Part shown: positions 10,770 to 63,920 of the stretch, one piece after another
How positions within the stretch are numbered: the first letter of the stretch is position 1
How the letters are laid out: the number at the start of each line of letters is the position of its first letter
Origin: Candidatus Magasanikiibacteriota bacterium
GTDB taxonomy: Bacteria > Patescibacteriota > Patescibacteriia > Magasanikbacterales > GWA2-37-8
Assembly (NCBI GenBank): GCA_041665405.1
Contig: JBAYIZ010000006.1
Span: 407-64,406, forward strand
Reading direction: 5' to 3'
Length of the DNA: 64,000 nt
Notes under the pieces: model-generated
What the model was told of the DNA's origin: nothing
Seen by the model: the letters and a program-made list of their open reading frames with translations, nothing else
Databases searched by the model: none
Position numbers and translations under genes: made by a program

Positions 10770-11006
10770 ACTAATTATATTTAAGCCAATACTACGCTAT
10801 TTTGCACAAAAAATCAAGACAAACAAAAAACTTCCTATAAGAAGAAGTTTTTTCTATTCTCATGTCGTTAACAACAACAGGAAAATGGATGCCTGCTTTT
10901 TTGTACCGTGAGCGCAGGCGAATCTCACATATTTTCCTTGCGGCGACTAGCCACGCATTAATCACATGCGCAACTTATCAAGCCGAATTGTGTTGGTACG
11001 GCGCGA

Positions 11007-11420
11007 TCAGCGCGCCTTGGGGGCGGCTGCTTCTCGCAGTTCGGCCAGCTTCCTGTCTACCTTTGGGGTGCCGAGGTGTTGCTTGGCCGCGAACACGAGC
11101 TTTGCGCGGGCAGATTGCACCGCCCTGTTCGAAGGACGACGGCCGGGTGGAGTCAAAGCCACCACCGCCTGCAACATTGCCTCCGTCGTCTGCTCGTCAC
11201 CCTGCTTGTACTCCCTGAGCGTGAACAGGACCTTCTCCACCTTCTCGTGGAGATCCCAGGACTCGCGCCAATACGGCCTGTCTTCGCCGGAATGGAACTT
11301 GTCGAGCATGGAGTGAGCCCTCCTCGACCTGAAGTAGCAAAGGACCAACACAAGCATCGACACGATGTTCACCGCAACACTGATACTGTGCCACATAGAA
11401 ATCCCCACTTCCTTCACCAT
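11007..11420 (-). CDS. small GC-rich protein with N-terminal TM helix (137 aa from MVKEV), hypothetical; GC island 1
   Basis: About 60% GC versus about 35% background; high GC3. Start at the internal ATG at 11420. The other overlapping ORFs in this island look like GC artefacts (S/R-rich). Confidence 0.45.
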   Translation of the reverse strand: MVKEVGISMWHSISVAVNIVSMLVLVLCYFRSRRAHSMLDKFHSGEDRPYWRESWDLHEKVEKVLFTLREYKQGDEQTTEAMLQAVVALTPPGRRPSNRAVQSARAKLVFAAKQHLGTPKVDRKLAELREAAAPKAR

Positions 11421-11571
11421 TGCTGACGAAGATGTTAGCTCTCTAGTTGGCGCGGGATGACACATCCACGCCCTTGCGACAAGCAAGCGGCAGCCCAGCT
11501 ACCTCTACTTTTTCCTTACCAAAAGAAAAACTAGCCGTAGCTTGGCCAAAATATATTTCAAAGAACGTGTA

Positions 11572-11600
11572 AATATAGCACAAAACAACAATTTTGTCAA
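11572..11600 (-). promoter_or_regulatory. sigma70-like promoter TTGACA-17-(TGc)TATATT reading into GC island 1 gene
   Basis: Reverse complement reads TTGACAAAATTGTTGTTTTGTGCTATATT: consensus -35, 17-nt spacer, extended -10. Confidence 0.5.
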
Positions 11601-13823: not shown

Positions 13824-14198
13824 GTGGCTGAAATTAAAAAACACATTTTGATTGTGGAGGATGAAAAACCGATGGCCAGAGCGCTCGAATTAAAGCTAAA
13901 TAAGTCCGGATATAATGCTATTGCTGTCTTTGATGGAGAGCAGGCATTGAATGCGCTCAAAAAAGAAAAGTTTGATTTGGTTTTGCTTGATTTAATTATT
14001 CCAAAAATTGACGGGTTCGGTGTTTTAGAAAAATTAAAAGACAATAATAACAAAACACCGGTAATTGTTTCTTCAAATCTTGGTCAGGAGGACGATATTA
14101 CTCGTGCCAAAGGACTTGGCGCCAAAGGATATTATGTAAAATCAAACACTTCTATCGCCGAAGTCATAGTACAAATCAAAAAAATATTAAACGCGTAA
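13824..14198 (+). CDS. stand-alone response regulator receiver (CheY-like REC) protein, GTG start
   Basis: ILIVEDEKPMARAL...LVLLDLIIPKIDGF...K phospho-acceptor architecture; 124 aa with no output domain. Confidence 0.8.
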   Translation: MAEIKKHILIVEDEKPMARALELKLNKSGYNAIAVFDGEQALNALKKEKFDLVLLDLIIPKIDGFGVLEKLKDNNNKTPVIVSSNLGQEDDITRAKGLGAKGYYVKSNTSIAEVIVQIKKILNA

Positions 14199-14210
14199 AC
14201 AACAAAAAAT

Positions 14211-15863
14211 ATGCAACTCGACGACAACAAAATTGAGAAAATTTTGCTTGACGGCAGTTATATTTCGGCGGATGACCTGAAAAAAGCACAACAATACGCC
14301 AAAGAGCATCATGCTACTTCATTGGTTTATTTACAAAACGAAGGGCTTATTAATCGCAATCTTTTGGGACAAGCAATTGCTGAATCACTTAATGTTGATT
14401 ACGCATCACTACCCGCACAACAACCAACCAAAGAACAAGTTTTGAAAATTCCCGAAGATATTGCCAACAAATATCATATTGTTTTATTTAAAGAAACACC
14501 AAAAGAAGTAGTTGTTGCTACCGACGATCCTGCGGCCACAGATTTATCCAAAGCATTAAAACAAATTTTCAAAACTCAAAAAATTTCTCTGGCTTATTCA
14601 TTGCCCGAAGATATTGATACTGCTTTTATTGCTTACCGCAAAACTTTGGAAACTCGTTTTGGTGATATTATAAAAAAACAAGAACACATTGCTCCGGAAA
14701 TTATTGATGAAATTATTGAAGATGCGATTGCCTACCACGCCTCGGATATTCACTTTGAACCACAAAGTAAAGAAGTGGTAATTCGTTTTCGTGTAGACGG
14801 CGTACTCAACGAAGCCGGCCGTATTCCCAAGGAATATTTTGGCAATGTTTTGAATCGTATCAAGGTACAATCACATTTACCGATCGATGAACATTATTCT
14901 GCTCAAGATGGGGCGATGCGTTTTGTCAAAGAAAACATGACGGCTGATTTGCGCGTGTCTATTTTGCCAACCTTGGACGGAGAAAAAGTGGTAATGCGTT
15001 TGTTGTCTCAATATGTGCGTGGTTTCAATTTACCGGATTTAGGATTATCGCCAGAAAATGAAATACTGTTAGAAAAAGCATACAAAAAACCGTTTGGGAT
15101 GATACTCATTACTGGCCCAACTGGCTCTGGAAAGACCACTTCTCTGTATGCACTACTTCGCATTTTGAATACTCCCAATGTAAACATCACCACCATTGAA
15201 GACCCGGTAGAATATCGAGTAGAAGGTATAAACCAAATTCAGGTTAACCCCAAAACCAATCTCACTTTTGCTGGCGGACTGCGTTCGATTGTACGCCAAG
15301 ATCCAGATATTATTTTGGTTGGTGAAATCCGCGACAATGAAACCGCTGAAATTGCCATCAATGCTTCACTCACAGGTCATTTATTATTATCCACTTTCCA
15401 TGCCAATGATTCTGCTACCGCTGTCCCGCGTTTACTCGACATGAAAATTGAACCATTCTTGTTGGCTTCAACTTTAGAATTACTTATCGCCCAGCGTTTG
15501 GTAAGAAAAATTTGTGAACAATGCAAAGTAAGTTCGGTGATAAAACAAATTGATATCAAAAAAACCGTGCCGGAATTAGCGAGAAAATATTTTACCGGCA
15601 AATCATATACTTTTTATAAAGGTAAAGGTTGTAGCGCGTGTGGCAATACTGGTTACAAAGGACGCCAAGCAATTTTTGAATTTATTCCCATCTCTCCGGA
15701 AATGAAAGAATTAATCTTAAAAAATCCTTCCACTCAAGAAATTTGGAAGGTTGCTCGCAAACAAGGATCAAAAACTTTGTTTGAAGATGGTTTAGAAAAA
15801 GTAAAAAACGGCATCACCACATTACAAGAATTATTACGCGTTGCAGAACCACCAAAATTTTAA
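14211..15863 (+). CDS. pilB: type IV pilus assembly ATPase PilB/GspE family
   Basis: N-terminal GSPII_E_N-like domain. Walker A ILITGPTGSGKTTSLYA, Asp box, Walker B, tetracysteine CEQCK...CSACGNTGYKGR. Confidence 0.9.
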   Translation: MQLDDNKIEKILLDGSYISADDLKKAQQYAKEHHATSLVYLQNEGLINRNLLGQAIAESLNVDYASLPAQQPTKEQVLKIPEDIANKYHIVLFKETPKEVVVATDDPAATDLSKALKQIFKTQKISLAYSLPEDIDTAFIAYRKTLETRFGDIIKKQEHIAPEIIDEIIEDAIAYHASDIHFEPQSKEVVIRFRVDGVLNEAGRIPKEYFGNVLNRIKVQSHLPIDEHYSAQDGAMRFVKENMTADLRVSILPTLDGEKVVMRLLSQYVRGFNLPDLGLSPENEILLEKAYKKPFGMILITGPTGSGKTTSLYALLRILNTPNVNITTIEDPVEYRVEGINQIQVNPKTNLTFAGGLRSIVRQDPDIILVGEIRDNETAEIAINASLTGHLLLSTFHANDSATAVPRLLDMKIEPFLLASTLELLIAQRLVRKICEQCKVSSVIKQIDIKKTVPELARKYFTGKSYTFYKGKGCSACGNTGYKGRQAIFEFIPISPEMKELILKNPSTQEIWKVARKQGSKTLFEDGLEKVKNGITTLQELLRVAEPPKF

Positions 15864-15872
15864 AATACGACC

Positions 15873-17336
15873 ATGGCCAAAATAAAGGAGCCAAAAATTA
15901 TCAAGAAAAAAGATAGTCGGGTATCACGATTTGATACTTTTGGTTTGGGTGAAGAAAAAGAATATTTGGTAGAAAATCTTGGTGTGCTTTTGGCCTCGGG
16001 CATGGATATTATCGACGCTTTGGAATCAATAAAAATTGAAATCCGTTCTAAAATCCTAAAAAAAATAATTACCAACATCCAGGATGATATCAATGGTGGG
16101 TCTAGCTTGTGGGAAGCGTTGGAGAAATCATATCTTCTACCAAAGCATATTATTTCGCTGATAAAAATCGGCGAGTCCAGCGGACAACTCCAAGAAAGTT
16201 TGGCCGTCATTGTCGTTCAACAACAAAAAAACCGTTCGTTCCGTTCCAAAATTCGTTCGGCCATGATGTATCCCGTGTTTGTGATGGCGCTAGCACTGAT
16301 TGTCGGAATTGGAATTTCCTGGTTTATTTTACCGCGTCTAGCGACAGTGTTTTCACAATTAAATTTAGAGCTTCCATTGGTCACGCGAATTCTTATCGGC
16401 TTTGGGTCATTTTTATCTGCTGAGGGTGTTTGGGCCGTTCCCTCTTCTATCGCTACATTGCTAGTAATAATATATTTTATTTTTATTTTCAAACCGACAA
16501 AATTTTTAGGCCAAAAAATATTATTTCATTTACCAGGAATTAAAAAATTGATTTTAGAAATTGAGTTGTCGCGCATGGGGTATATTGTTGGGACATTATT
16601 ACAAGCCGGATTGCCAATAGTGGACACCATCGAATCCCTAAGCGACGCTTCGCCGTTGCATAATTATAAAAAACTATACTCGCAATTAGCTTTGTTTTTG
16701 AAAGATGGAAAATCATTTCAAGAATTTTTTGCCGCTAACAAAAAAATTAAAAAGATGATTCCAATTCCAGTACAAGGATTAATTGTGGTGGGTGAACGCT
16801 CTGGCAGATTGTCAGAAATTTTTCTAAATGTTGGAAAAACCTACGAGGAACGAACCGATTTAACTACGAAAAATTTGAGTGTGATTTTGGAACCAATTTT
16901 ATTGATAGTAGTTTGGCTCGGAGTAGTGGCTGTCGCTCTAGCGGTTATCCTTCCTATATATAGCTTGGTTGGAGGGCTAAACAAAAAACCGGCTGCCCGC
17001 CCACCAAGACCGGTGTCTACTATAATAACAGAAACAAACACCTCTACGATTGCCGTTGTGGATTTTTCTACCTCGACCACCAGCACAATCAAATTACCAA
17101 CCACCCCACCAGAAATAATGGCGGTGCCTGGTACACAAATGGTAACAATTTTGGATACTGGCATCGGCTATCTCAATGTCCGTAGCGAACCATCCACCCA
17201 AGCCAAAATTTTACAAAAGGTAAATGTTGGAACATCTTATCCATATTTAGATAAACAAAATGGTTGGTATAACATCATATTACCAGACGGCCAAATCGGT
17301 TGGGTCAGCGAACGCTACACCAAGCTCGTGCCGTAA
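15873..17336 (+). CDS. pilC: type IV pilus platform protein PilC/GspF fused to a C-terminal SH3b-like domain
   Basis: Two T2SF repeats with TM helices. The C-terminal 100 aa are Thr-rich and end in GYLNVRSEPSTQAKILQKVNVGTSYPYLDKQNGWYNIILPDGQIGWVSERY, an SH3b-type motif. Confidence 0.85.
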   Translation: MAKIKEPKIIKKKDSRVSRFDTFGLGEEKEYLVENLGVLLASGMDIIDALESIKIEIRSKILKKIITNIQDDINGGSSLWEALEKSYLLPKHIISLIKIGESSGQLQESLAVIVVQQQKNRSFRSKIRSAMMYPVFVMALALIVGIGISWFILPRLATVFSQLNLELPLVTRILIGFGSFLSAEGVWAVPSSIATLLVIIYFIFIFKPTKFLGQKILFHLPGIKKLILEIELSRMGYIVGTLLQAGLPIVDTIESLSDASPLHNYKKLYSQLALFLKDGKSFQEFFAANKKIKKMIPIPVQGLIVVGERSGRLSEIFLNVGKTYEERTDLTTKNLSVILEPILLIVVWLGVVAVALAVILPIYSLVGGLNKKPAARPPRPVSTIITETNTSTIAVVDFSTSTTSTIKLPTTPPEIMAVPGTQMVTILDTGIGYLNVRSEPSTQAKILQKVNVGTSYPYLDKQNGWYNIILPDGQIGWVSERYTKLVP

Positions 17337-17760
17337 AGGTTTCACTCTGCTTGAAGTGATGCTGGTGCTCGCTTTTTTTGCCTTGCTCACTAGTATGTCG
17401 GTCCCGATTATAAATTCTTTTCAGGCGGAAAATAGTGTGAATTTAACGACAGCAACGATCACCCAGTCTATTCACCGTGCTATTTTACTATCACAAGGAT
17501 TAATGTTCGATTCAGCTTGGGGGGTGAATTTAACCACTGGAAAAATTACTATTTTCAAAGGCACTTCTTTTGCGGCACGCGATATTTCGTTTGATGAATA
17601 TTATGAAACGCCTGCCAATATTACTATCGCCGGATTAACTGAGATTACTTTTGCTCCGCTCACTGGGCAGCCACAAAACATTGGTACCATCACCATTACT
17701 GCTCCAGACAACGATCCAAGAGAAATAAATATCAACGCCCGGGGAATGGTCGACTACTAA
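17260..17760 (+). CDS. type IV pilin-like (pseudopilin) with class III signal KG/FTLLEVM; unusually long leader if ATG 17260 is used
   Basis: Prepilin peptidase motif RKGFTLLEVMLVLAFFALL overlaps the pilC stop. The only in-frame start is ATG 17260, giving a 26-aa leader and a 77-nt overlap with pilC. Confidence 0.55.
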   Translation: MVGITSYYQTAKSVGSANATPSSCRKGFTLLEVMLVLAFFALLTSMSVPIINSFQAENSVNLTTATITQSIHRAILLSQGLMFDSAWGVNLTTGKITIFKGTSFAARDISFDEYYETPANITIAGLTEITFAPLTGQPQNIGTITITAPDNDPREININARGMVDY

Positions 17761-17763
17761 TTT

Positions 17764-18234
17764 ATGCAAATATTAAAACAACAAAATAACCGTGGATTTT
17801 CTTTAATCGAAGTTATTCTAGCTAGCTCGGTTTTTGTTTTGTTGGGATTTATGTTGGTGGGTGGAATTGTATATGGCCAAGAAAGCTCGCTCAAAGGAGC
17901 TTTGCGATCCCGAGCGGCCATGTTGGCTGAGGAAGGGCTCGAGGCAGTGCGCAGTATTCGCAACCAAAATTTTTCTGATTTGAACGTTGGTACATTTGGT
18001 CTTTCTACTTCTACTGGACAATGGTCTCTGGTTGTAGCGGCGGAATATTCAGATAATTTTTTACGTGAAATCACTATCACAGACATAGATGTTCACCAAA
18101 AAAAAATTATTTCCAAAGTAATTTGGCTATCAGAAAATAATCTAGAAAATTCTGTTTCATTAACAACTTTTTTGACCGATTGGTCGTTTGTCACTCCTGA
18201 AAATTTGGATTCTGGTGTTTGTTCTACTTCATAA
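17764..18234 (+). CDS. type IV pilin-like minor pilin
   Basis: NRGFSLIEVILASSVFVLLGFML class III signal peptide. Confidence 0.7.
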   Translation: MQILKQQNNRGFSLIEVILASSVFVLLGFMLVGGIVYGQESSLKGALRSRAAMLAEEGLEAVRSIRNQNFSDLNVGTFGLSTSTGQWSLVVAAEYSDNFLREITITDIDVHQKKIISKVIWLSENNLENSVSLTTFLTDWSFVTPENLDSGVCSTS

Positions 18235-18236
18235 AT

Positions 18237-18731
18237 ATGAAAAATATTTACAATAAAAAATCTGGTTTTACACTTATCGAAGTTCTGCTATATGTGGGCA
18301 TTACTTCGTTTATGTTGTTAACTATAAACATTTTTATTGCCACTGTTTTACAATCACGGATAAAAAACCAAACTGTTTTGGTAGTTGAAAACAGCGGTGT
18401 TGCTATAATGCAAACTATCATACAGACATTGAGAAATGCGACACAAATAAATATTTCAAATCCACAAACAATTTCCGCCACTATGCCAGACGGCCAACAA
18501 ATAGTTTTTGGCCTAGAAAATCAAGTAATAAATTCAACTCAAAGTGGCACCATTTATCCACTAATACCAAGCGATGTTTCCGCCACCTCGCTACAGTTTA
18601 CTAATCTTGCACCCGCCGAAAAACCCGCTTCAATACAAATAATTTTTAATCTTGAGAACCTTAGTCCCGAAGGCAGAAACGAAACTACTTACTCACAAAC
18701 TTTTTATGATACTGCCACATTACGAAAATAA
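18237..18731 (+). CDS. type IV pilin-like minor pilin
   Basis: MKNIYNKKSGFTLIEVLLYVGITSFML; start moved to the second Met so the leader is canonical. Confidence 0.65.
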   Translation: MKNIYNKKSGFTLIEVLLYVGITSFMLLTINIFIATVLQSRIKNQTVLVVENSGVAIMQTIIQTLRNATQINISNPQTISATMPDGQQIVFGLENQVINSTQSGTIYPLIPSDVSATSLQFTNLAPAEKPASIQIIFNLENLSPEGRNETTYSQTFYDTATLRK

Positions 18732-19125
18732 TCCAACCGAAAAAAACGGCTTTGTAATATTACTGAGCGTGCTTATCATGGGCTCGGTTGGTTTGGCTGT
18801 GGCATTGTATTTATTATCTGCCGGCCTTACTTCCTCTCAAAACGGCTCAGTTTTAGAATTATCTAATCAGGCGAAAGCTCTCTCGAATGCATGTGCAGAA
18901 ATTGGTTTAGCAAAAATCGCCAACTGTACATCTACTGTTGGAACTTTTGAGACAATCATCGATGAAAGTAAATGTTCATATTCTATAATCCAAACCGGTG
19001 ACAATGGCCGAACTTTGACCAGCCAAGCGACTCAAAATGATTTAACTAGAAAAATTAAGATTGAAGTTGGACAAGTCAGCCCGATAATAACTATTAATTC
19101 ATGGCAAGAAGTCGCTGGTTTTTAA
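18706..19125 (+). CDS. PilX/GspK-like minor pilin (no Glu5)
   Basis: NGFVILLSVLIMGSVGLAVALYLL hydrophobic N-terminus lacking E at +5. The start is uncertain (18652 or 18706). Confidence 0.45.
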   Translation: MILPHYENNPTEKNGFVILLSVLIMGSVGLAVALYLLSAGLTSSQNGSVLELSNQAKALSNACAEIGLAKIANCTSTVGTFETIIDESKCSYSIIQTGDNGRTLTSQATQNDLTRKIKIEVGQVSPIITINSWQEVAGF

Positions 19126-19175
19126 AATAAATACAAACTCTCCAAATTATGATATAATTTGTATGAGAAAATTTT

Positions 19176-20888
19176 ATGAAAAATAAGTTTGGTTTTACAT
19201 TGTTAGAAATTTTATTGGTTGTAGCTACTATGAGTGTGCTGGCAGGTATTGTGATTGTCGCTGTTAATCCCAGCAGACAGCTTGGAGCCGCCCGCAACGC
19301 TACACGCCAAGCGGATATGGGTTCAATTTTGGGTGCGCTTTATCAATATTCACTTGATCATGATAATTTCTTCCCTACCTCTACTGACAACACTTTGAGA
19401 ATGTTGGGCACGAACACGGCTGGATGCGCGATAGATTGTAGTGGGGCGTCCGACCAGGGAGTAGGAGAAACTCCTGCTGTTACCATCACTGACCAGACTC
19501 AAGCAGATTTTCTTCTTGGACCAAAGGCCTCTACATACTATGATTCAACTGGGGGTTATCTAAAACTATCTGCCAATGCTATTTCTGGCACATACACATC
19601 CAATATAAAAAATTCAAATGAATCTTTGGCGATTTGGAATACTCTAGGATGGACAACCAATCGCCCTATTCAAAAAGAACTACCAAATAATGGCCAAACT
19701 GAAACTGGATATCCATCTGGCAACGCCAACATGTCTGACAATGTTTTATTACTACATTTCAACGAACCAAGCGGTGCGGCTAGCTTCACTGATAGCTCAG
19801 GTAATGGTAACGATGCAAGTTGTGGTGGAGTTTGCCCAAACACTATTAACAATGGACTATTTAATAATTCCATAAATTTTTCTGACACCGCAGATGATTA
19901 TTTAGTTGTTGCCGATAGTGATAGTTTAGATCTTACTAATAAGGCGACAATTGAATTTTGGATAAAACCTAGTAAATTAACAATACCTGTTGTTAATGGT
20001 AATCAGTATGCCATAATACTTTATAAAGGCGCTCTTTATGCAAACAGGTCTCTTAATTTTGATAAAATAGCTTTTTGGTTAACAAGTTTTGGACAACATT
20101 ATCTGCGTATATATGTTGGCAATCCTGCGGGAGGGACAAAAATTTTCGACATTAAATATATATCTCCAACCAAGTGGAATCATGTAGTATTTACTTTTGA
20201 TAATGGTACAGCAAAAGCTTATGTTAATGGCATAAAGGGACCTTCCAATTTGGTCGGCACACCAGTTCCTGAGGAAAATAATTTTGGTTTTCCAGCAATG
20301 CAAGCAAATAACCATAATTTATACATAGCTGGAATAATAAGTGATAGATTAGATGCGGCTCTCGATGATGTTGCGATGTATAAACGAGCATTAACTCAAA
20401 CAGAAATTACGGATCATTATATTCGTGGTGCCGCCAGATTAAAATTCCAAACACGATTCTGCCAAGACGAAATTTGTTCCTCCAACCCTGGTTTTATCGG
20501 CCCAGATGGTACATCCAATAGTTATTTTTCTAATTCGCTTAATCCCGCTACACTTAGCGGAATGAATGGACAATATTTTCAATATAAAGCAACCTTGGAA
20601 AGCGATAAAGCTGGAGTTTCCCCAGAATTAAAGACTGTTTCTGCGTCCTACAAAATAGGCAGTGCTGAACCACAAGTAATAGGCACTTTTAGCTCTTCCT
20701 CCACGGCCGAATCCTGTTTAGATCTTTCGCCAGAATTGGTCAGCGACTATTTAAGCGCCATTCCGTTTGATCCAAAATTTGGTAGTCCAGCCAAAACTTA
20801 TTATGCAGTCCAAAAAGGCGCTGGCGGGAGAATGATGATGCAGGCTTGTGGATCGGAAAACGGAGAGAGTATAATAGTGTCACGCTAA
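19176..20888 (+). CDS. large type IV pilin with C-terminal concanavalin/LamG-like domain (570 aa)
   Basis: MKNKFGFTLLEILLVVATMSVLAGIVIVAVNP class III signal with conserved pilin helix. Central LamG-like block (LVVADSDSLDLTNKATIEFWIKPSK...) followed by a Cys-containing C-terminus. Confidence 0.75.
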   Translation: MKNKFGFTLLEILLVVATMSVLAGIVIVAVNPSRQLGAARNATRQADMGSILGALYQYSLDHDNFFPTSTDNTLRMLGTNTAGCAIDCSGASDQGVGETPAVTITDQTQADFLLGPKASTYYDSTGGYLKLSANAISGTYTSNIKNSNESLAIWNTLGWTTNRPIQKELPNNGQTETGYPSGNANMSDNVLLLHFNEPSGAASFTDSSGNGNDASCGGVCPNTINNGLFNNSINFSDTADDYLVVADSDSLDLTNKATIEFWIKPSKLTIPVVNGNQYAIILYKGALYANRSLNFDKIAFWLTSFGQHYLRIYVGNPAGGTKIFDIKYISPTKWNHVVFTFDNGTAKAYVNGIKGPSNLVGTPVPEENNFGFPAMQANNHNLYIAGIISDRLDAALDDVAMYKRALTQTEITDHYIRGAARLKFQTRFCQDEICSSNPGFIGPDGTSNSYFSNSLNPATLSGMNGQYFQYKATLESDKAGVSPELKTVSASYKIGSAEPQVIGTFSSSSTAESCLDLSPELVSDYLSAIPFDPKFGSPAKTYYAVQKGAGGRMMMQACGSENGESIIVSR

Positions 20889-20920
20889 TAATTCAATTTA
20901 TAAATTAATAATTTTTATAT

Positions 20921-21367
20921 ATGCAAAATCAAAGAGGTTTTACGCTGTTGGAAATTTTGTTGGTGGTAGCGGCGATTGCCATCTTGGCAGGTATCGTCAT
21001 TGTGGCCATCAATCCAGCAAAACAATTGGCAGACACACGCAATGCGCAACGACGAGTGGATGTTAATACTATATTAAACGCCATTTACCAATATGCAATA
21101 GACAATAGAGGAAATATGCCTCCTGACATCACCACTACAAAAACTGAAATTTGTAAAAGTCAAAATGGTAGTGCGTGTGCAGACGCCGCCTTGGTTGATT
21201 TGTCTCCTGTAACTGTCAACGAGGTTTATATTACAGCCATCCCAAGCGATCCTAGCATTGCCACCACAAATGGCACCGGATATTTTATTTCTAAAACTGC
21301 CAATAATCGCATTACTGTTGAAGCAACCGGCGAACCAGCCAGTCAAATTATCTCCGTAACTAGATAA
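20921..21367 (+). CDS. type IV major pilin candidate (148 aa)
   Basis: MQNQRGFTLLEILLVVAAIAILAGIVIVAINPAKQLADTRNAQRRVDVNTILNAIYQYA; C-terminal disulfide pair. Confidence 0.8.
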   Translation: MQNQRGFTLLEILLVVAAIAILAGIVIVAINPAKQLADTRNAQRRVDVNTILNAIYQYAIDNRGNMPPDITTTKTEICKSQNGSACADAALVDLSPVTVNEVYITAIPSDPSIATTNGTGYFISKTANNRITVEATGEPASQIISVTR

Positions 21368-21369
21368 TT

Positions 21370-22734
21370 ATGCCCTCTCCGGCACAAAAAAGAATTGACG
21401 GCGACATCCACATCACCCTATTAATATTAGGGTGGGTGTTTTTGTTAATCAATTTGATGCTGGCCTATTCATTCAAAAATATTTTAGACAGACAATTATC
21501 AATGTTGGTCGGTGGCGCCTTTTTGATGCAGGGACTTTTTCTTTTATTAACTGCCACATACTTTTCTCACACCATAAAAGCGGCCAAAAAAGTTACTGAA
21601 GAATTGGAATTGGCAAAAATAAAAATAGAAACCGAAAAAGCCAAAGATGAGGCACTATTAAACAGCATTGGCGATGGTGTGGTAGCGACTGATAATACTG
21701 GGGCAATTATTTTTATTAACAAAGTCGCCGAAGAAATGTTGTCTTGGACGGGTGCAGTAATAGGAGAAAAATTGGGTGAGATTTCCTTGTTGACTAACGC
21801 CAATGGAGAACATATTTCAATAGAAAAACACCCACTACACCTGAGTTTAGAAACAAAAAAACAAGTAGTTACCAAGGACTATCGATTTGTGCGTGAAGGC
21901 AAAGTGGATCTGGCAGTATACATCAGTGCCACACCAGTAATTCTCAAAGACGAGGTTGTCGGGGCTATCGAAGTTTTCCGTGATATTACCAAAGAAAAAG
22001 AAATAGACCAAGCCAAAAGTGAATTCGTCTCGTTGGCCTCACACCAATTACGCACTCCCCTATCTACTGTAAATTGGTATACAGAAATGTTGTTGGCCGG
22101 TGATGCAGGAAAAATGAATGCTGAACAAAAAAAATATTTGCGCGAAATCTATGATAGTAACAATCGCATGATTGATTTGGTAAACACGTTGCTAAATGTA
22201 TCGCGTATTGAAATGGGGACCTTCAAAGTAAAACCAGAACCAATAAAAATCAGCGAAGTAATAGAATCGCTTTTAAGTGAATTGTCCGTACAAACTTCCC
22301 AACATAAATTAAAAGTGGAAAAAAAGTTTGGCAAGGATGTTCCAACTATCAATGCCGACCCTAGCTTGATTAGAATTATTATACAAAATCTTTTATCCAA
22401 TGCGGTGAAATATACACCCGATGGTGGAAAAATATCCGCCGAAGTGATGCGTCGTCCACACGATGTCATGATTGAAATAAAAGATAGCGGTTATGGTATT
22501 CCAAAAAACCAGCAAGATAAAATTTTTAATAAAATGTTTCGCGCCGAAAATGTGAAGGATAAAATTACGGATGGCAACGGGCTAGGGCTTTATTCCACTA
22601 AAGCAATAGTGGAACAATCCGGTGGAAAAATTTGGTTTGAATCAGAAGAAAACAAAGGCACTTCGTTTTTTGTTACTATTCCGCTAACAGATCCAAAGAA
22701 AAAAATCGGCAAGAAAAATTTATCGGCCTTTTAA
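21370..22734 (+). CDS. membrane sensor histidine kinase with PAS domain
   Basis: Two TM helices, PAS segment, H-box SHQLRTPLSTVNWYTEML, HATPase N/G boxes (LLSNAVKYT, GNGLGLYSTKAIVEQSGGKIW). Confidence 0.85.
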   Translation: MPSPAQKRIDGDIHITLLILGWVFLLINLMLAYSFKNILDRQLSMLVGGAFLMQGLFLLLTATYFSHTIKAAKKVTEELELAKIKIETEKAKDEALLNSIGDGVVATDNTGAIIFINKVAEEMLSWTGAVIGEKLGEISLLTNANGEHISIEKHPLHLSLETKKQVVTKDYRFVREGKVDLAVYISATPVILKDEVVGAIEVFRDITKEKEIDQAKSEFVSLASHQLRTPLSTVNWYTEMLLAGDAGKMNAEQKKYLREIYDSNNRMIDLVNTLLNVSRIEMGTFKVKPEPIKISEVIESLLSELSVQTSQHKLKVEKKFGKDVPTINADPSLIRIIIQNLLSNAVKYTPDGGKISAEVMRRPHDVMIEIKDSGYGIPKNQQDKIFNKMFRAENVKDKITDGNGLGLYSTKAIVEQSGGKIWFESEENKGTSFFVTIPLTDPKKKIGKKNLSAF

Positions 22735-23175: not shown

Positions 23176-23215
23176 ATCCCGACTAAATCGAGATGTTTTA
23201 TTTTTAAAGCGTTTA
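23176..23215 (+). terminator. intrinsic terminator after the REC gene (imperfect 8-bp stem + TTTTATTTTT)
   Basis: CATCCCGA-CTAAA-TCGAGATG followed by a T-run. Confidence 0.45.
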
Positions 23216-23348
23216 TATCACTCGCACAATCTGAAAACAAATTTTATTTTCAAATTGCGCGGCGAGTGACATCTACCGCGTCTGCCCCACCGCCCGCTTG
23301 TAGCGAGTGGGGCTACGATGGCTAGTCTCTACAAATTAGCCCTTCCAT

Positions 23349-23822
23349 CTAGAAGGTGCCCGCCCCCAAGGCGAGTTGGACCTCCCATCCGAAGGAGTTC
23401 TTCTCCACGACGTCCTGTTGCCAGCCGACAGGGGCTTTCAGGAAAACGCGGGCACGCCACAGCTTCATACTGACCATCGGACCAGCCCCGTACAACAGCC
23501 CGTCGTTGCCCTTCTGTCCAGAAAGGACCCCGCCGAAGTTGAACGTGAGCCCATCAACGATCACGTCATAGGTGACGCCGTAGGCCATGCCGTAGCCCGA
23601 TACTTGGGTCGGAACCCAGAACTGGGCGAAGTGGGTCGTGTGACCATCCGGCTGGACCAAGTAGAGGCCCATGCCGATGTCGGTGCCGTCCTCAAACCCG
23701 GCGTGTTGCACGAACAGGCCGGCCCCACCAGTCTCCGGACCAGGACCCTCAGCCAGGGCGACTGAAGGAACTGCGAAAAGGACGACGCTCACGATGACGA
23801 AAAACCACGCGATGTGCTTCAT
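23349..23822 (-). CDS. GC-rich secreted beta-barrel outer-membrane-protein-like protein (OmpW/OMP_b-brl-like), GC island 2
   Basis: About 62% GC. Signal peptide MKHIAWFFVIVSVVLFAVPSVALA. Gly/aromatic-rich alternating strands and a C-terminal aromatic ...LALGAGTF. Start taken at the internal ATG at 23822, where the GC content begins. Confidence 0.5.
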   Translation of the reverse strand: MKHIAWFFVIVSVVLFAVPSVALAEGPGPETGGAGLFVQHAGFEDGTDIGMGLYLVQPDGHTTHFAQFWVPTQVSGYGMAYGVTYDVIVDGLTFNFGGVLSGQKGNDGLLYGAGPMVSMKLWRARVFLKAPVGWQQDVVEKNSFGWEVQLALGAGTF

Positions 23823-23994
23823 GGATTTACTCCGAAAACTAGAGTTCATCGGTACCCAGCCGACACACCACGCGACAATCATTGTCGAGAGGTAAGGGTG
23901 ATTATTTATTCCTATATACATTAGAAATACATAATTTCCTTTACCTCTTTGAGACATTATTTATCCATTATAATTTAAAAAGAACTAACTGAAC

Positions 23995-24023
23995 AGTATC
24001 ACACAAAACAATCAAATTGTCAA
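23995..24023 (-). promoter_or_regulatory. promoter TTGACA-17-(TGt)GATACT reading leftward toward the GC island 2 gene
   Basis: Reverse complement TTGACAATTTGATTGTTTTGTGTGATACT. The spacer shares TTGTTTTGTG with the island 1 promoter. Confidence 0.45.
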
Positions 24024-24061: not shown

Positions 24062-24207
24062 TACACAGAACTAGTCCTAAACCATCGTATGTATCTGATA
24101 CTTTGGCTAGGGGCGGACCAAAAGAATCGTGGCTGATTATATATGGTCAGTTTTTTTGTTATATTAAATCCGGCAAATCATCTAAGATTAGCCAAATTAA
24201 TTAAATT

Positions 24208-44157: not shown

Positions 44158-44330
44158 ATATGTATGATTAAAAATACTTCGCAATATTATCTTAAAACAC
44201 AAAAAAAGTCAATTTTATGGCTGTGGTATTGCTTTTTTGAGGATGTTGGTGTATATTTTTTAAATCCACCCGTGGCCAGGTCGTGTTATATAGACACAGC
44301 CTCGGCGACTATAGCGAAAGAGGGGAAACC

Positions 44331-44529
44331 ATGGCGCGAGCCAAACCGGCAACGGACACGTGTTGAGGTACATGTTCGATTCCAGTTCAACCTCAGGCCG
44401 CAACAACGGGCTGAGGAGGCCACGCAGAAGGCCAAGAAGTGGCAGAGGGACAACCCGGGCTGGGGCTGTGATCCCAACCCCACGACGATCGGCAACGGCT
44501 ACGCTACCTTCAGGGCTCGTCGCACCTGA
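44331..44529 (+). pseudogene. GC island 3: small GC-rich ORF apparently frameshifted (SD+ATG at 44331 gives 11 aa; the high-GC3 frame continues to TGA 44527-44529)
   Basis: Good RBS AGAGGGG-6-ATG. The long ORF with GC3 bias (EVHVRFQFNLRPQQRAEEATQKAKKWQRDNPGWGCDPNPTTIGNGYATF...) is in the +1 frame relative to that ATG and has no start codon of its own. Confidence 0.25.
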
Positions 44530-44667
44530 CGACGATCAACCTCTTCGACGCACACCCCCAGTCGAGCACAAGTTGCTCCTGGGGGCGGGGCTTAGATGAA
44601 ATTATCCTTCCTGTCCTAAGTAGAAAAAATATTTTCTTTTTAGGACAAGGATAATTTCTTAAAATAA

Positions 44668-48241: not shown

Positions 48242-48313
48242 GGTACCGTTGCCAAGCAGTAAGGCAGAGCTCTGCAAAAGCTCTATGCGTGGGTGCAATT
48301 CCCACCGGTACCT
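48242..48313 (+). tRNA. tRNA-Cys (anticodon GCA), discriminator U73, atypical T-loop (UGCAAUU); CCA not encoded
   Basis: Acceptor GGTACCG/CGGTACC, anticodon stem GAGCT/AGCTC with loop CTGCAAA, T-stem GTGGG/CCCAC. U73 is the Cys identity element. Confidence 0.65.
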
Positions 48314-48341
48314 CGAAATAGCAGTAGTGCTGTAGAACAAA

Positions 48342-48443
48342 CATCCCAGACAATGACTTTTTCGCTTTTTTCGACCGCGAGGTCGAAAGGATGAGCCTCG
48401 GCTCATAACCCGCTCAAAAGTAATTGTCTGGGATGTTTTTTTG
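48342..48443 (+). ncRNA. structured repeat R2 copy C immediately 3' of tRNA-Cys; outer stem + T7 acts as an intrinsic terminator
   Basis: Core 48363-48415 has compensatory hairpin-1 changes (CGACC-GCGA-GGUCG versus GCCC-GCGA-GGGC). It lies inside a 16-bp stem CATCCCAGACAATGAC/GTAATTGTCTGGGATG followed by TTTTTTT. Confidence 0.55.
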
Positions 48444-48453
48444 TACCATAAAA

Positions 48454-48482
48454 TTGACTTTGTGTTTTTTATCAAGTAAAAT
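48454..48482 (+). promoter_or_regulatory. promoter TTGACT-17-TAAAAT reading into GC island 4
   Basis: AT-rich host-type promoter; the GC-rich leader begins directly after the -10. Confidence 0.45.
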
Positions 48483-48576
48483 ATTTTTGTGTCCCAAACG
48501 ACCGACGGTTCGCCGTTCGGTCACAACGACCACTTGCACCGCTCATCGGTGGTGGTCTCGAAAAGGAGAGAGAGCC

Positions 48577-48798
48577 ATGCGTGTGCTTCCCTCGATCCTG
48601 AACCAGAGCCGGAGACGGAGCGACAATTCCGCCGATTGCGGGCAGGTCGCGAGCTCCGAGGCCGACTTCATCCACAGGCAACTGCTCGAGCATGGCTTCT
48701 GCTCGGACATGAAGGAGGGCGCCGTCGGCACCGCCAACATGGTCGGCATCGTCTGTTCGACCGCGGCCGGCCGCGGAGCAGTAGTCCTCCTGGTGTAG
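48577..48798 (+). CDS. small GC-rich protein (73 aa), hypothetical; GC island 4
   Basis: Strong SD AAAGGAGAGAG-5-ATG. About 65% GC with high GC3. Sequence MRVLPSILNQSRRRSDNSADCGQVASSEADFIHRQLLEHGFCSDMKEGAVGTANMVGIVCSTAAGRGAVVLLV. The longer overlapping track ORFs are GC artefacts. Confidence 0.5.
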   Translation: MRVLPSILNQSRRRSDNSADCGQVASSEADFIHRQLLEHGFCSDMKEGAVGTANMVGIVCSTAAGRGAVVLLV

Positions 48799-48827
48799 GG
48801 CTCAGCTTCGTACGAGACAACCAGTGC

Positions 48828-48881
48828 GGCCGGACCGGGAGCTCCTTCGGGGGTTTCTGGTCCGGCCGTCGTTTCCTTTTT
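48828..48881 (+). terminator. GC-rich intrinsic terminator of island 4 (GGCCGGACC...GGTCCGGCC + T-run)
   Basis: 9-bp GC stem enclosing a second hairpin, followed by TTTCCTTTTTATT. Confidence 0.6.
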
Positions 48882-48962
48882 ATTATATTTAATACTCAAA
48901 GCGGGTATTTTTTTATTGCTCAAAAAAGGGTTTGCGTGTAAAATAAGAACGAATAATATTTT

Positions 48963-55485: not shown

Positions 55486-56220
55486 ATGGAAAATTTGAAT
55501 ATTCTAAAAGAACTCGGTTTAGACGACCAAGAAGCGAGTGTATATATGGCTTTATTAAAATTGGGTGGATCTCAAGCCAGTGTTGTAGCCAAAGATGTTG
55601 GCATTAAACGGACAACAGTTTACCCTGTTTTGCAGGCGTTGGCGGCCAAAGGGATGGTAAATGTTTATTTTCGAAAAAACCGCCATTTCTATTATGCTCA
55701 AAAACCAAATAGAGTGGTGGGTATTTTCAAAAAGAAAATAGAATCATTTGAAAGTATTATTCCAATGTTGGAACTAGTTGAAAAAAAACAAGTGATGGCC
55801 ACGGGTTTGCGCTTTATTGAAACAGTTGAAGAATTAAAACAATTTTATAACGGAATTTTAGATGAGTATAAAGGGAAGCAATATCTGGCAATTGGAAATA
55901 CGGCGGCATGGGAGGGATTGGAACCAGAATTTTTTGTAAACTTTCGTAGACAAAGAGCAGAAAATAAAATTAAAACGAAATTACTATTAACATTTAATTC
56001 TGTCGAAATAAATCCAATAGAAACCTCGCTATTAAGAGAGTGGAAATATCTTCCTGAAAAATATAAATTTCAAAGTACGATAGATATTTTTAATGATAAA
56101 ATTTTGATTGTGAGTCCGGAGCTAAGTTCGTTGGCGGTGGTGATCGCGGTGCCGGCGATGACGGATATTTTTAAATCTGTTTTTGAGATGTTGTGGCAGA
56201 TGTTGCCGGAGGTGAAATAA
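55486..56220 (+). CDS. TrmB-like winged-helix transcriptional regulator (short paralog, 244 aa)
   Basis: N-terminal LKELGLDDQEASVYMALLKLGGSQASVVAKDVGIKRTTVYPVLQALAAKGMV matches the TrmB wHTH. Divergent from the aminotransferase operon. Confidence 0.7.
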   Translation: MENLNILKELGLDDQEASVYMALLKLGGSQASVVAKDVGIKRTTVYPVLQALAAKGMVNVYFRKNRHFYYAQKPNRVVGIFKKKIESFESIIPMLELVEKKQVMATGLRFIETVEELKQFYNGILDEYKGKQYLAIGNTAAWEGLEPEFFVNFRRQRAENKIKTKLLLTFNSVEINPIETSLLREWKYLPEKYKFQSTIDIFNDKILIVSPELSSLAVVIAVPAMTDIFKSVFEMLWQMLPEVK

Positions 56221-59948: not shown

Positions 59949-61118
59949 ATGCTGATAAAAGACCTCCAATCTATCGGTTTTACCAAGAATCTATCTGAGG
60001 TTTATTTGTCTTTAGCCCAATTGGGAGGCCAGGCCAAAGCTGGGGAAATCATCAAAAAGACAGGTTTACACCGAAATATCGTTTATATTTGTTTAGACAA
60101 ACTAATAGAAAAGCAATTATTAACTAAAACCGAAGAACGCGGTGTTACTATTTATAAAACACTAGATCCAGCCCGACTAATGAATGAAATTCGAGAAAAA
60201 GAACAATTAACAACAAATATTATTGAAGAAATTGAAGCATTAAAAAAGCATCCAGACACTCAAGAAATAATTGTCCACGAAGGTTTGGAAGGTTTTAGAA
60301 ATTTCAATCTCTATACTTTGAAAAAAATCGAAGAAGGTGGCACATTGCAAGTGCTTGGTTCCATTGGAGATAAATGGTTTGAATACATGGGTGAAGAAAA
60401 GTACAAAGAATATATAAAAATACAAAACAAGAAAAAAATTAAGTGGGAGATGATTACTTATTTTGATTCAAAACGCGACAAACAATTTATTAATGACTAT
60501 CCAGAATTATGCGAGGTAAAATTATTACCGCAGACATATGATAATCCGGCCAGCATTTATATTTTTGGAGATACAATTTCAATAAATATTTTTACCGAAC
60601 CATTTTCGGTGATTGAAATAAAAAATCGCGCGGTGGCGGATGTATATAGAAATTATTTTAGTTTGTTGTGGAACCAAGAAGTGTTTACCTATCGCGGTTG
60701 GGATGCGATTGATAAAATTTTGTGTGCGAATTTGGAAGATGGATTTACTTATGATGTTTTTGGGGCAACATATGGTGTGGGTACAAAAGAGGAACAAGAT
60801 CGCGTGTTGGAATTTTTTATGGAGAACCACAGAAAGACCGCACACTTTAAACCAAATAGACGATTGATATTTTTTGAACAAGATCGTGAGCAGGCGGCTA
60901 AAGAAGTTTCTCCGTTGGATGCAGACACTCGTAAAAATGTTCGTTTGCGTTTTCTGTCAGACAAATATTTTTCGCCGATGGAGACACATTTGTTTAAAGA
61001 TAAAGTAATTTTAATTTTTTCTTTTGGCGAACCAATCGCGACAGTTTATACCAATCCAAAAATAATTGAAGTTTACAAAAAACAATTTGAGTTGTGGTGG
61101 GGGATGTCGGTGGAATAA
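59949..61118 (+). CDS. TrmB-like regulator, long paralog (389 aa)
   Basis: N-terminal wHTH IGFTKNLSEVYLSLAQLGGQAKAGEIIKKTGLHRNIVYICLDKLIEKQLL plus a C-terminal effector-like domain. Paralogous to 61919 and 63976. Confidence 0.7.
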   Translation: MLIKDLQSIGFTKNLSEVYLSLAQLGGQAKAGEIIKKTGLHRNIVYICLDKLIEKQLLTKTEERGVTIYKTLDPARLMNEIREKEQLTTNIIEEIEALKKHPDTQEIIVHEGLEGFRNFNLYTLKKIEEGGTLQVLGSIGDKWFEYMGEEKYKEYIKIQNKKKIKWEMITYFDSKRDKQFINDYPELCEVKLLPQTYDNPASIYIFGDTISINIFTEPFSVIEIKNRAVADVYRNYFSLLWNQEVFTYRGWDAIDKILCANLEDGFTYDVFGATYGVGTKEEQDRVLEFFMENHRKTAHFKPNRRLIFFEQDREQAAKEVSPLDADTRKNVRLRFLSDKYFSPMETHLFKDKVILIFSFGEPIATVYTNPKIIEVYKKQFELWWGMSVE

Positions 61119-61162: not shown

Positions 61163-61308
61163 GATAACTTCTTGAGCTCAACAAGATGTTGGAGTGAATG
61201 AGCGGTCACTACCAGCCGCGTGACTTTTTGTTTTACCGGTAGTCACAAACCGGATGATCCCAGACCCCTCATCAGCGGACCATTGAATTGTCCTGAAACT
61301 TTGCACCT

Positions 61309-61707
61309 CTACGCCTGTTCGCGACAGGGCAGGCATTCGTAGCCCACCCAAAGGCCGTTGGCAAAGGTGAAGTCGAAGTCCCAGCGGTTGTCACCACCGT
61401 ACCAGCAGAGGCTGGCAGTGTATTTGAATCCATTGGGGGCGAGAAGAGTGGTGCCAGTGAGCACGATCTTCTTCTTACGCATTTTCATCGGAATCTGGTC
61501 TTGGTGGTCAAGCAGTTGCTGGCCGTCACGCACTCCAAGGACGCCATTCCGACGACGTGCGCGTTCGCGCAATTCGGAGCCCTTGATGCATTCCTCGCCA
61601 CGCTTGAGGCACGACTCGATCCGGAGCTTGTTGATGTGAAGATCTGCAATTGGATCACAGTCTTCCACAACCTTAAACTCCACCCTGTTCCAAACGAATG
61701 TATTCAC
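61309..61707 (-). CDS. GC-rich Cys-rich small protein (132 aa, GTG start), hypothetical; GC island 5
   Basis: SD AAGGAGGTGA-4-GTG. About 58% GC. Contains CxxC-like pairs (ESCLKRGEEC, ECLPCRE). Divergent from the TrmB paralog at 61919. Confidence 0.45.
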   Translation of the reverse strand: MNTFVWNRVEFKVVEDCDPIADLHINKLRIESCLKRGEECIKGSELRERARRRNGVLGVRDGQQLLDHQDQIPMKMRKKKIVLTGTTLLAPNGFKYTASLCWYGGDNRWDFDFTFANGLWVGYECLPCREQA

Positions 61708-61918
61708 CTTTCACCTCCTTGCGGTTCTGACAGGTTGGTTGCTCTGAAGAGAGCAATTGTTGTTAACAACTCAATAAAATATCATATTTCACTTTATTGG
61801 TCAATCATTTTATCCCTAAAATTAGCAAAAAAATCAGATAAAAGCTGACAAAATTATGTTGGGGGTTGACTTTTTGGCTAAATTCATATAAAATAATCAT
61901 CATAAATAATATGACAAT

Positions 61919-63040: not shown

Positions 63041-63076
63041 CAAAAAACCGATTGCGATATGCAGTCGGTTTTTTAA
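63041..63076 (+). terminator. conserved TrmB-paralog terminator AAAAAACCGATTGCGATATGCAGTCGGTTTTTT
   Basis: Same family as 56227 and 61128. Confidence 0.65.
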
Positions 63077-63168
63077 TTACTTCTTGAACCAAAATGATTT
63101 AGTTCGAAAAGTAGCTGCGCGTCTTTTTGACCGGGACGCGCAACCGGGTGAGAGGGTGGAACCGGACG

Positions 63169-63660: not shown

Positions 63661-63728
63661 GGGACACCTCTGCAGACCAGAAGGCCTGCCATCTGCATTA
63701 GTCAGTCAGGTTGCATTTGCGAACCCAT

Positions 63729-63776
63729 ACTGCTTTTGCCAGACGAAATAGTTCACAATAGATCTTATGGACTATT
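63729..63776 (-). promoter_or_regulatory. long perfect 16-bp inverted repeat (TGCCAGACGAAATAGT...ACTATTTCGTCTGGCA) in the 5' leader of the island 6 gene
   Basis: It sits between the minus-strand promoter at 63829-63857 and the ATG at 63660. Confidence 0.5.
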
Positions 63777-63828
63777 TCGTCTGGCAGTTGTAAAGAACAG
63801 TGTTACGGGTTATTGATCGTAACAAGCC

Positions 63829-63857
63829 AGTATATCATATATTTGTATACTTGTCAA
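63829..63857 (-). promoter_or_regulatory. promoter TTGACA-17-TATACT (perfect consensus) driving the island 6 gene
   Basis: Reverse complement TTGACAAGTATACAAATATATGATATACT. The homologous position in the preceding unit (61770-61798) reads TTGACC-17-TATTTT. Confidence 0.5.
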
Positions 63858-63920
63858 GGGTTTTTTGGCTAAAACTAGCTAAAAACAAGCATAAATAAGG
63901 ATGACAAAAAAATCATAAAC

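Follow-up and report, generated by a model that had tools for sequence, protein, structure and literature searches.

GC-rich single-gene islands between core genes of an AT-rich Candidatus Magasanikbacteria genome: a probable pool of exchangeable, moron-like modules

Phage genomes carry morons, extra genes that each lie between two conserved genes, have a promoter and terminator of their own and deviate in GC content (PMC3594210). Units of comparable build are described here from a cellular chromosome, namely from a stretch of 64,000 nt (the window hereafter: positions 407 to 64,406 of contig JBAYIZ010000006.1, assembly GCA_041665405.1) in a metagenome-assembled genome of Candidatus Magasanikbacteria, a member of the candidate phyla radiation (CPR, or Patescibacteria), which comprises ultra-small bacteria, with NCBI locus tags from WCV83_02290 onward. 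Phage morons are reportedly to be credited to Juhala and Hendrix. The window contains six short islands of GC-rich DNA, and we propose, with a probability of roughly 0.6, that these are moron-like accessory modules of one gene each, drawn from a lineage-restricted pool, swapped by recombination, and held GC-rich by a force that acts on the nucleic acid.

The GC content of the window is 38.4% overall, 58.0% within the six islands and 37.4% outside them. A 100-nt scan called the islands as six long high-GC segments of 0.37-0.66 kb each, at 10931-11550 (island 1, 56.6% GC), 23221-23880 (island 2, 58.3%), 44251-44620 (island 3, 57.3%), 48481-48900 (island 4, 59.8%), 61181-61660 (island 5, 54.6%) and 63081-63740 (island 6, 60.6%). 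Throughout the 64 kb, 300-nt windows with at least 50% GC are confined to these six, with peaks of 0.57-0.66 and robust z of 4.0-5.8. The initial annotation, made from the sequence alone, had described six short GC-rich islands in an AT-rich genome, each with one small open reading frame (ORF) rich in G and C at third codon positions (GC3); the islands were recovered at 55-61% against 37.4% GC, and the ORFs likewise, apart from small coordinate details. The GC3 of the island ORFs, 0.67-0.85, lies wholly outside the range of 0.23-0.41 spanned by 29 host genes (mean 0.33). Long host ORFs flank all six islands, which lie within the gaps between them.

The source of the window is metagenome-assembled and the compositional borders are sharp, so that foreign GC-rich fragments might be suspected of having been joined into an AT-rich contig during assembly or binning. 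The islands are not assembly chimeras. Over 2412 nt that cover island 2 and both its borders, the window is matched at 99.8% identity by a contig (L001) of a different JGI sample, and the misassembly against which the initial annotation had cautioned is contradicted by the recurrence of these junctions in an independent sample. The island proteins of the window recur on a 64.8-kb NCBI/JGI contig, a 97.6-kb ENA contig and short Logan contigs; the same junctions are present in independent assemblies and samples; orthologous islands occupy orthologous sites in other species, recovered in unrelated studies; and host-type promoters and terminators abut the islands. The chance of an artefact is practically negligible.

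Relatives were sampled as polA neighbourhoods from GTDB species representatives; comparison loci and contigs carry L numbers. Magasanikbacteria-like loci contained 36 GC islands in 377 kb (9.5 per 100 kb, 4.5% of bases), and non-CPR control loci with GC below 48% contained none in 230 kb (13 loci). The islands are thus a feature of the lineage, and the occupancy of their sites is variable. All four of the single-gene sites compared are empty in some relatives, and three of the four hold unrelated GC-rich inserts in others. The gap between tRNA-Cys and polA, which houses island 4, measures 648 nt in the window; it contains unrelated GC-rich cores in L017 (625 nt) and L004 (410 nt), and is empty, at 79-167 nt, in L002 (PolA 85% identical), L003, L008, L013 and L041. 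The gap between tig and the H+-pyrophosphatase gene (island 3; 550 nt in the window) holds unrelated cores in L004 and L041 and is empty in L002, L003, L008, L013 and L018. Between a response regulator gene and rpsL (island 2; 1048 nt in the window) L059 has an empty gap of 174 nt, and in L060-L064 the gap is about 573-600 nt and carries a gene for a small two-helix membrane protein. The gap between tgt and uvrD (island 1; 909 nt in the window) is an empty 70 nt in L065-L067. At the tRNA-Cys site every insert brings its own TTGACT-17-TAnnAT promoter and terminator, and the polA promoter stays downstream. Turnover is also seen between L010 and L034, whose PolA proteins are 92.5% identical, yet several of whose islands differ; relative to L010, L034 has an additional module of roughly 1 kb, whose insertion point is 2-4 nt upstream of the -35 box of tig.

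The initial annotation had spoken of gene cassettes captured into promoter-equipped slots and had advised a search of sister genomes for empty and filled sites. Both kinds of site were found at the four positions, together with differently filled ones at three of them, and the picture of slots with replaceable cargo stands. Each module would be autonomous, with a sigma-70-type promoter for its transcription, a Shine-Dalgarno site in the leader, one small coding sequence and, at the end, a hairpin terminator. It would sit at a seam of the core genome, after one terminator and before the next promoter, and be gained, lost or replaced there, from a pool that is probably restricted to Candidatus Magasanikbacteria and close CPR relatives.

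The manner of exchange is suggested by the slots that house islands 5 and 6, each of which lies between two paralogous genes for TrmB-like helix-turn-helix (HTH) proteins. The two slots resemble each other by homology in the terminator of the upstream gene and in the divergent promoter region, and hold unrelated cargo. In a related strain (L054) a gene similar to that of island 6 (78% amino acid identity) directly follows the orthologue of the 389-aa TrmB-like gene (TrmB389), which is the position of island 5 in the window. The 3' module of island 5 (61165-61265) is 79-92% identical to the module behind barrel genes in L013, L004 and L002, and a metagenome scan with it gave no match. The 3' module of island 2 has a counterpart of 77% identity in L017, where it is found at another site and next to an unrelated island gene. 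These 3' modules differ among islands, and are common only to small subsets of them. Conserved slot borders with differing cargo suggest exchange through homologous borders or flanks. The absence of an integrase, a transposase or an attC-like array, as reported in the initial annotation, was confirmed within the 64-kb window, no ORF scanned there having an integrase or transposase domain. Modules may have entered by rare illegitimate insertions and then spread as conserved flanks or slot borders recombined homologously, in which case no dedicated recombinase would take part.

A GC-rich island gene for a 153-aa protein, present in L010 (7745-8206) and L034 (8448-8909), has a synonymous divergence (dS) of 0.15, when polA in the same pair has a dS of 1.20 (1.2); its 832-nt module is 91% identical between the two, against 79-86% for the flanks, and its product is weakly similar to that of island 5 (31% over 61 aa). 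The low dS indicates a recent exchange between lineages.

The unusual composition appears to persist over deep divergence. The island 6 family was found in ten contexts at species level (the window, L054, L017, L002, L004, L013, L055/56, L057/58, L072 and L073), and in all ten the gene has 52-63% GC and a GC3 of 0.62-0.82, in backgrounds of 36-46% GC and at 25-78% identity. Since synonymous sites are saturated at these divergences, a one-off import would have decayed toward the composition of the host; the family has kept its GC3, and does not behave as an ameliorating import should. Island genes have a lower dS than a flanking gene in four of four pairs: 0.60 against 0.88 for the flanking TrmB gene (island 6, window and L054), 0.87 against 1.77 (L002 and L004), 0.73 against 1.20 for polA (a 147-aa gene in L010 and L034), and the 153-aa gene already mentioned. 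In the island 6 gene, third-position changes polarised in the window and L054 by the outgroup L017 number 12 from AT to GC and 21 from GC to AT; as G or C occupies about three quarters of the sites (GC3 near 0.75), these counts imply an equilibrium GC3 of about 0.63. The untranslated parts of the islands are GC-rich too (49-63%), so that selection at the level of codons cannot on its own explain the pattern. Translational selection of the host type was considered and rejected: the highly expressed host genes fusA and rpsL favour C and A at third positions, and the islands favour C and G and avoid A. Taken together, the sequence comparisons point to GC-richness as a maintained trait, and not the legacy of a donor. 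The composition would then persist far above the equilibrium of the genome and would not mark recent import. The most likely candidate causes are GC-biased gene conversion at recombination-prone loci and selection on nucleic-acid composition, whether of DNA or mRNA. That such a local force, be it biased gene conversion at hot spots or selection on DNA or mRNA, keeps some 4-5% of an otherwise AT-rich genome near 60% GC is put forward tentatively, at slightly less than an even chance.

The initial annotation had favoured another origin, the repeated and recent capture of genes from GC-rich donors, such as the host of an epibiont, into promoter-equipped slots. It is true that the composition of the islands, at all three codon positions and in the untranslated regions, resembles that of a genome of about 60% GC, that the sites are empty in close relatives, that one insert is already a pseudogene, and that outer-membrane-type barrels come as a surprise in bacteria presumed to have a single membrane. 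But searches for a donor brought none to light. No high-GC lineage with compositionally native homologues was found for islands 2, 5 or 6, and no island protein that was searched has a homologue outside the CPR. The proteins of islands 2 and 5 have no relative but themselves among 5.8 billion protein clusters. By cluster look-up only, the island 1 protein belongs to a 90% cluster of four members, whose sole named one is from a Magasanikbacteria metagenome-assembled genome, and that of island 4 to a cluster with a single member; the members of both clusters are conspecific. An exhaustive HMMER search of 1.84 billion representatives gave 35 clusters for the island 6 family, mostly of 160-180 aa (range 93-229, fragments included), and all named members are from Magasanikbacteria or Parcubacteria. 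Nothing above threshold was found for the island proteins in Pfam, PHROGs, NCBIfam or PADLOC; scans of viral contigs with islands 1, 2, 5 and 6 gave no relatives; and a metagenome scan with the island 6 alignment returned only the L017 contig.

The weakest match to the island 6 profile (P0066, E 4e-4) is also the only one on GC-rich DNA, at 1446-1976 of L071, a contig of 77% GC. It adjoins a gene for an ABC permease, and probably represents a small barrel with at best a very remote relationship to the family, and no donor. The island 6 family has retained both its TrmB partner and its GC-richness across the CPR down to 25% identity, and its dS of 0.60 between window and L054, of the same order as the 0.88 of the flanking TrmB gene, fits co-inheritance. 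The proposed foreign GC-rich donor has accordingly not been borne out, given that islands 2 and 5 are without relatives and the island 6 family is confined to the CPR and still GC-rich at 25-29% identity. Finding the same GC-rich genes in all relatives with normal synteny had been named beforehand as the outcome that would count against capture; this was found in part, in that relatives carry the GC-rich gene in a conserved local synteny, for island 6 only. For that island the capture reading is already weakened, and for the set as a whole we regard it as unlikely.

Several points tell against the reading preferred here, of exchangeable modules kept GC-rich. The relatives were covered as polA, rpsL and barrel neighbourhoods only. 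No target-site duplications or terminal repeats were seen at the junctions, so that no mechanism of insertion is visible, and an all-against-all comparison of the islands gave no shared end motifs of attC-like or MITE-like kind (MITE, miniature inverted-repeat transposable element). The test of polarised changes in island 6 is small, with 33 informative GC-changing sites, and its outgroup is saturated. A GC3 in excess of the GC content of the untranslated regions is exactly what is expected of a gene from a genome of about 60% GC, and for islands 1 to 5 repeated import from an unsampled donor clade could still apply. Finally, mRNA structure was rejected as a general cause of GC-richness, the coding sequences of islands 1, 2 and 4 having folding z values of about 0.

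Such z values are consistently negative only in the island 6 family (-1.8 to -5.8). The strongest, -5.2 to -5.8 against dinucleotide shuffles, are those of the window (63169-63660), L017 (12801-13286) and L057 (6001-6489). Complementary repeats of Gly and Ala codons may contribute to the folding in this family.

It might be asked whether the islands are instead genes for structured non-coding RNAs, their ORFs being a by-product of the scarcity of stop codons in GC-rich DNA. The GC-rich block roughly coincides with the predicted transcribed unit, and island 6 does fold far better than its shuffles (z of -10.5 as a full transcript, -5.8 in the coding sequence), with compensatory changes in its leader hairpin. 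Rfam, however, searched at the gathering threshold for the whole window and at E <=1 for three island regions, returned only tRNAs and chance hairpin matches. Codon positions, too, behave as in coding sequence: in six pairs of orthologous island genes the third position is the most divergent in all six, and the order third, first, second holds in four, the first and second positions being tied or nearly so in the other two. The ratio of nonsynonymous to synonymous divergence (dN/dS) is 0.23-0.32 for island genes and 0.035-0.09 for flanking core genes (polA or TrmB). The codon-position pattern and a dN/dS below 1 argue that the island genes are translated, under a purifying selection that appears to be weaker than in core genes. 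With the Shine-Dalgarno sites, the signal peptides, the absence of excess folding in the coding sequences of islands 1, 2 and 4, and a protein family of 37 sequences with a confident structural model, a non-coding role for the islands becomes highly improbable.

The small genes might also have been born de novo in GC-rich spacer DNA poor in stop codons, as all but one of the five intact products either are orphans or are known from a single species, and they are short, some without a predicted fold. Birth in place would leave the source of the GC-rich DNA unexplained, and it sits badly with the sophisticated conserved fold and the age of the island 6 family, and with purifying selection on several island families. 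Such an origin is very unlikely.

The modules differ in detail. Their promoters are predicted, having been called by consensus matches only (scored out of 12 positions). The module of island 1 (10931-11600, minus strand) has a predicted promoter at 11600-11572 (TTGACA-17-TATATT, 11/12, with TG extension), a GC-rich leader between promoter and coding sequence, and a 137-aa coding sequence at 11007-11420 with one N-terminal hydrophobic helix and a GC3 of 0.77. That of island 2 (23200-24023, minus strand) runs from a predicted promoter at 24023-23995 (TTGACA-17-GATACT, 10/12, with TG extension) through a 157-aa coding sequence (23349-23822, GC3 0.78), whose product is beta-rich with a signal-peptide-like N-terminus and a C-terminal Phe, to a structured 3' module at 23200-23330. 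In island 3 a Shine-Dalgarno site and an ATG at 44331 open a small gene on the plus strand that meets a stop after 11 codons (44331-44366) and goes on in another frame at 44368-44529, with a GC3 of 0.76; the consensus search found no convincing promoter for it. Island 4 (48454-48880, plus strand) comprises in order a predicted promoter at 48454-48482 (TTGACT-17-TAAAAT, 10/12, without TG), a GC-rich leader, a Shine-Dalgarno site, a 73-aa coding sequence at 48577-48798 (GC3 0.85) and a terminator at 48826-48869, with a 20-bp stem of which 13 pairs are G-C, followed by a T run.

Island 5 (61165-61804, minus strand), in its slot flanked by two TrmB-like genes, has a predicted promoter at 61804-61776 (TTGACC-17-TATTTT, 9/12, with TG extension) and a coding sequence at 61309-61707 for a Cys-rich protein of 132 aa (GTG start, GC3 0.67), with its 3' module behind. 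Island 6 (63081-63857, minus strand) has a predicted promoter at 63857-63829 (TTGACA-17-TATACT, 11/12, with TG extension), a leader hairpin at 63737-63786, a 163-aa coding sequence at 63169-63660 (GC3 0.82) whose modelled product is a signal peptide and an eight-stranded barrel, and a terminator hairpin at 63113-63145 with an 11-bp stem. The N-terminus is hydrophobic in three of the five intact products, as a membrane helix in island 1 and signal-peptide-like in islands 2 and 6. The features foreseen in the initial annotation were largely recovered: the frameshift in island 3; host-type promoters at islands 1, 2, 4 and 6, to which island 5 is added, the TG extension being absent at island 4; and GC-rich end hairpins at islands 4 and 6. 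The leader hairpin of island 6 (minus strand) has 22-nt arms, in which L017 shows compensatory changes, from GAAATAG/CTATTTC to GAGGTAG/CTACTCC; it may act as a regulatory hairpin in the RNA or, as a palindrome, bind a protein.

The AlphaFold2 (AF2) model of the island 6 protein, built on a 37-sequence alignment, has a mean predicted local distance difference test score (pLDDT) of 94 and a predicted template modelling score (pTM) of 0.81, and consists of a signal helix and eight long strands in which hydrophobic and small residues alternate. The C-terminus of the family is a conserved motif, Q-P-x-x-x-[YF]-x-F, which resembles the assembly signal of outer-membrane proteins. With the Pfam family OMP_b-brl (PF13505) the island 6 protein scores 19.4 bits (E 1.3e-3), short of the cut-off of 28.7. 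On the strength of the model, the product is confidently predicted to be an eight-stranded barrel of outer-membrane type, complete with signal peptide. Of the two such barrels announced in the initial annotation only this one is upheld. The second, in island 2, is unconfirmed: its single-sequence AF2 model is mostly beta and poor (pLDDT 49), hhalign gives it a 1.3% probability of matching the island 6 family, and its barrel-like features are the signal-peptide-like N-terminus and the C-terminal Phe only.

Patescibacteria have been proposed to possess no outer membrane (PMC12102498). The window contains a type IV pilus operon (13824-22734) with genes for a response regulator, a PilB-like ATPase, a PilC-like protein with an SH3 domain, a LamG-domain protein, a pilin with an N-methylation motif and a histidine kinase, and four small ORFs. 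No secretin gene is present in this operon, which fits a single-membrane envelope. One might imagine that the modules of a single-membrane CPR epibiont are aimed at a GC-rich host with two membranes, the barrels, with their conserved C-terminal assembly signal, being inserted into that host or expressed within it and the conserved GC-rich codon usage mirroring its own and not that of the symbiont; we consider this distinctly improbable.

A TrmB-family gene lies near the island 6-family gene, on the opposite strand, in all eight informative contexts, including those of members at 25-29% identity. It is directly adjacent and divergent in seven of the eight, and one small ORF intervenes in L072. 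In the window, TrmB389 (59949-61118, plus strand; Pfam TrmB, E 2.6e-8) has a terminator that abuts island 5. A 370-aa TrmB-like HTH protein is encoded at 61919-63031 (plus strand; Pfam TrmB, E 2.7e-10), divergent from island 5, and the terminator of its gene (63042-63074, plus strand) abuts island 6. A third TrmB-like gene, divergent from island 6, starts at 63977 on the plus strand, is cut by the end of the window, and is preceded by a consensus promoter at 63921-63949 (plus strand). Between the two divergent promoters there is a palindrome of the form GGCTAA-N2-TTAGCC (alignment A3), which in the window reads GGCTAAAACTAGC (63867-63879) and is perfect in L017 as GGCTAACTTTAGCC. The pairing kept across contexts, together with the palindrome, argues for an old unit, probably of regulator and target; the palindrome is probably a TrmB operator that controls the small gene. 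Island 6 and the slot of island 5 would both represent this old two-gene unit, in which a TrmB-type regulator is divergent from a small gene.

At least four TrmB-like HTH paralogues occur within 9 kb (55486-56220, 59949-61118, 61919-63031, and 63977 to the end of the window), and GGCTAA-N2-TTAGCC palindromes are seen in divergent promoter regions of these paralogues. The long TrmB-like proteins (370-389 aa) have a C-terminal region of about 300 aa without a PDB or Pfam match; a PDB sequence search with TrmB389 gave nothing.

The other genes of the window include, in the origin region, dnaA, dnaN, rnpA and yidD, and further tgt, uvrD, the type IV pilus operon, a two-component system, rpsL-rpsG-fusA, a gene for a class A penicillin-binding protein, tig, genes for an H+-pyrophosphatase and an M23 peptidase, tRNA-Cys, polA, an ABC transporter and the several TrmB-like HTH genes. 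Two further elements were observed between these genes. A conserved structured element of about 105 nt (48341-48443, plus strand), with a long closing stem and two inner hairpins, directly follows tRNA-Cys (48242-48314). L017, L002, L013, L008 and L041 have this element, L004 and L003 do not; RNAalifold gives 39 pairs, 18 of them with compensatory changes, and there is no Rfam match. It could be a small RNA that has escaped annotation, or else a tRNA-linked element that serves processing or termination. The leader upstream of rpsL (24090-24170, plus strand) contains a hairpin and a T run and is well conserved between the window and L060, L063 and L064; it, too, has no Rfam match, and may be a ribosomal-protein leader or attenuator.

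If the modules are of the kind proposed here, an atypical GC content is no proof of recent import: an old, lineage-restricted family keeps an excess of about 20% GC, with a GC3 of 0.6-0.8, in genomes of 36-46% GC, and the logic by which genomic islands are usually detected would mislabel it. Some 4-5% of the DNA, divided among dozens of small units, is kept far from its equilibrium composition, and this offers a contrast within one genome for separating selection from biased gene conversion. That these ultra-small bacteria, believed to be without an outer membrane, have a conserved TrmB-paired barrel of the outer-membrane type bears on how they build their envelope or attach to a host. The modules would together form an accessory set of fast turnover, encoding small proteins of which several are membrane-bound or secreted, and these are plausible candidates for interaction with hosts or phages.

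The resemblance to phage morons is close in that the islands are single genes between conserved ones, at 58% against 37% GC, are absent in close relatives at the sites compared, and have predicted promoters (all but island 3) and terminator hairpins (islands 4 and 6) of their own. It ends with the setting, which is the cellular core chromosome (polA, rpsL, tig and uvrD, and near oriC) and not a prophage, without phage genes, PHROG matches or relatives on viral contigs; and whereas the composition of morons is read as a sign of recent transfer, at least one island family keeps its odd composition over deep divergence. Like flexible genomic islands and islets of the replacement type, which are exchanged through flanking homology, the islands occupy fixed sites with unrelated contents in related genomes, and need no recombinase. 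Flexible islands, in contrast, are clusters of many genes, and here one small gene makes up a unit of 0.3-1 kb, with about 10 units per 100 kb and a systematic shift of about +20% GC. With integron cassettes the islands share small size, a mostly single-gene content of diverse and often unknown function, and exchangeability at a site; they differ in having no IntI, attI, attC or tandem array, and each has its own promoter, when integron cassettes are usually promoterless. They are unlike insertion sequences or MITEs, having no transposase domain, terminal repeats or target-site duplication. The GC-rich RNA genes of AT-rich genomes, as sought in the classic GC-island screen, give the same sharp intergenic GC peaks, but the islands are protein-coding and have no Rfam match.

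The island 6 product, for its part, is like the small outer-membrane barrels (NspA, OmpX and the N-domain of OmpA, OprF-N, OmpW, PagL) in its signal peptide, eight antiparallel strands, alternation of hydrophobic and small residues and C-terminal aromatic end, and unlike them in belonging to a CPR-restricted, TrmB-paired family with a sub-threshold match to PF13505. No description of the phenomenon was found in the literature, and what appears to be new is how densely a minimal genome is set with such units, their systematic and conserved excess of GC, and the family of TrmB-paired barrels.

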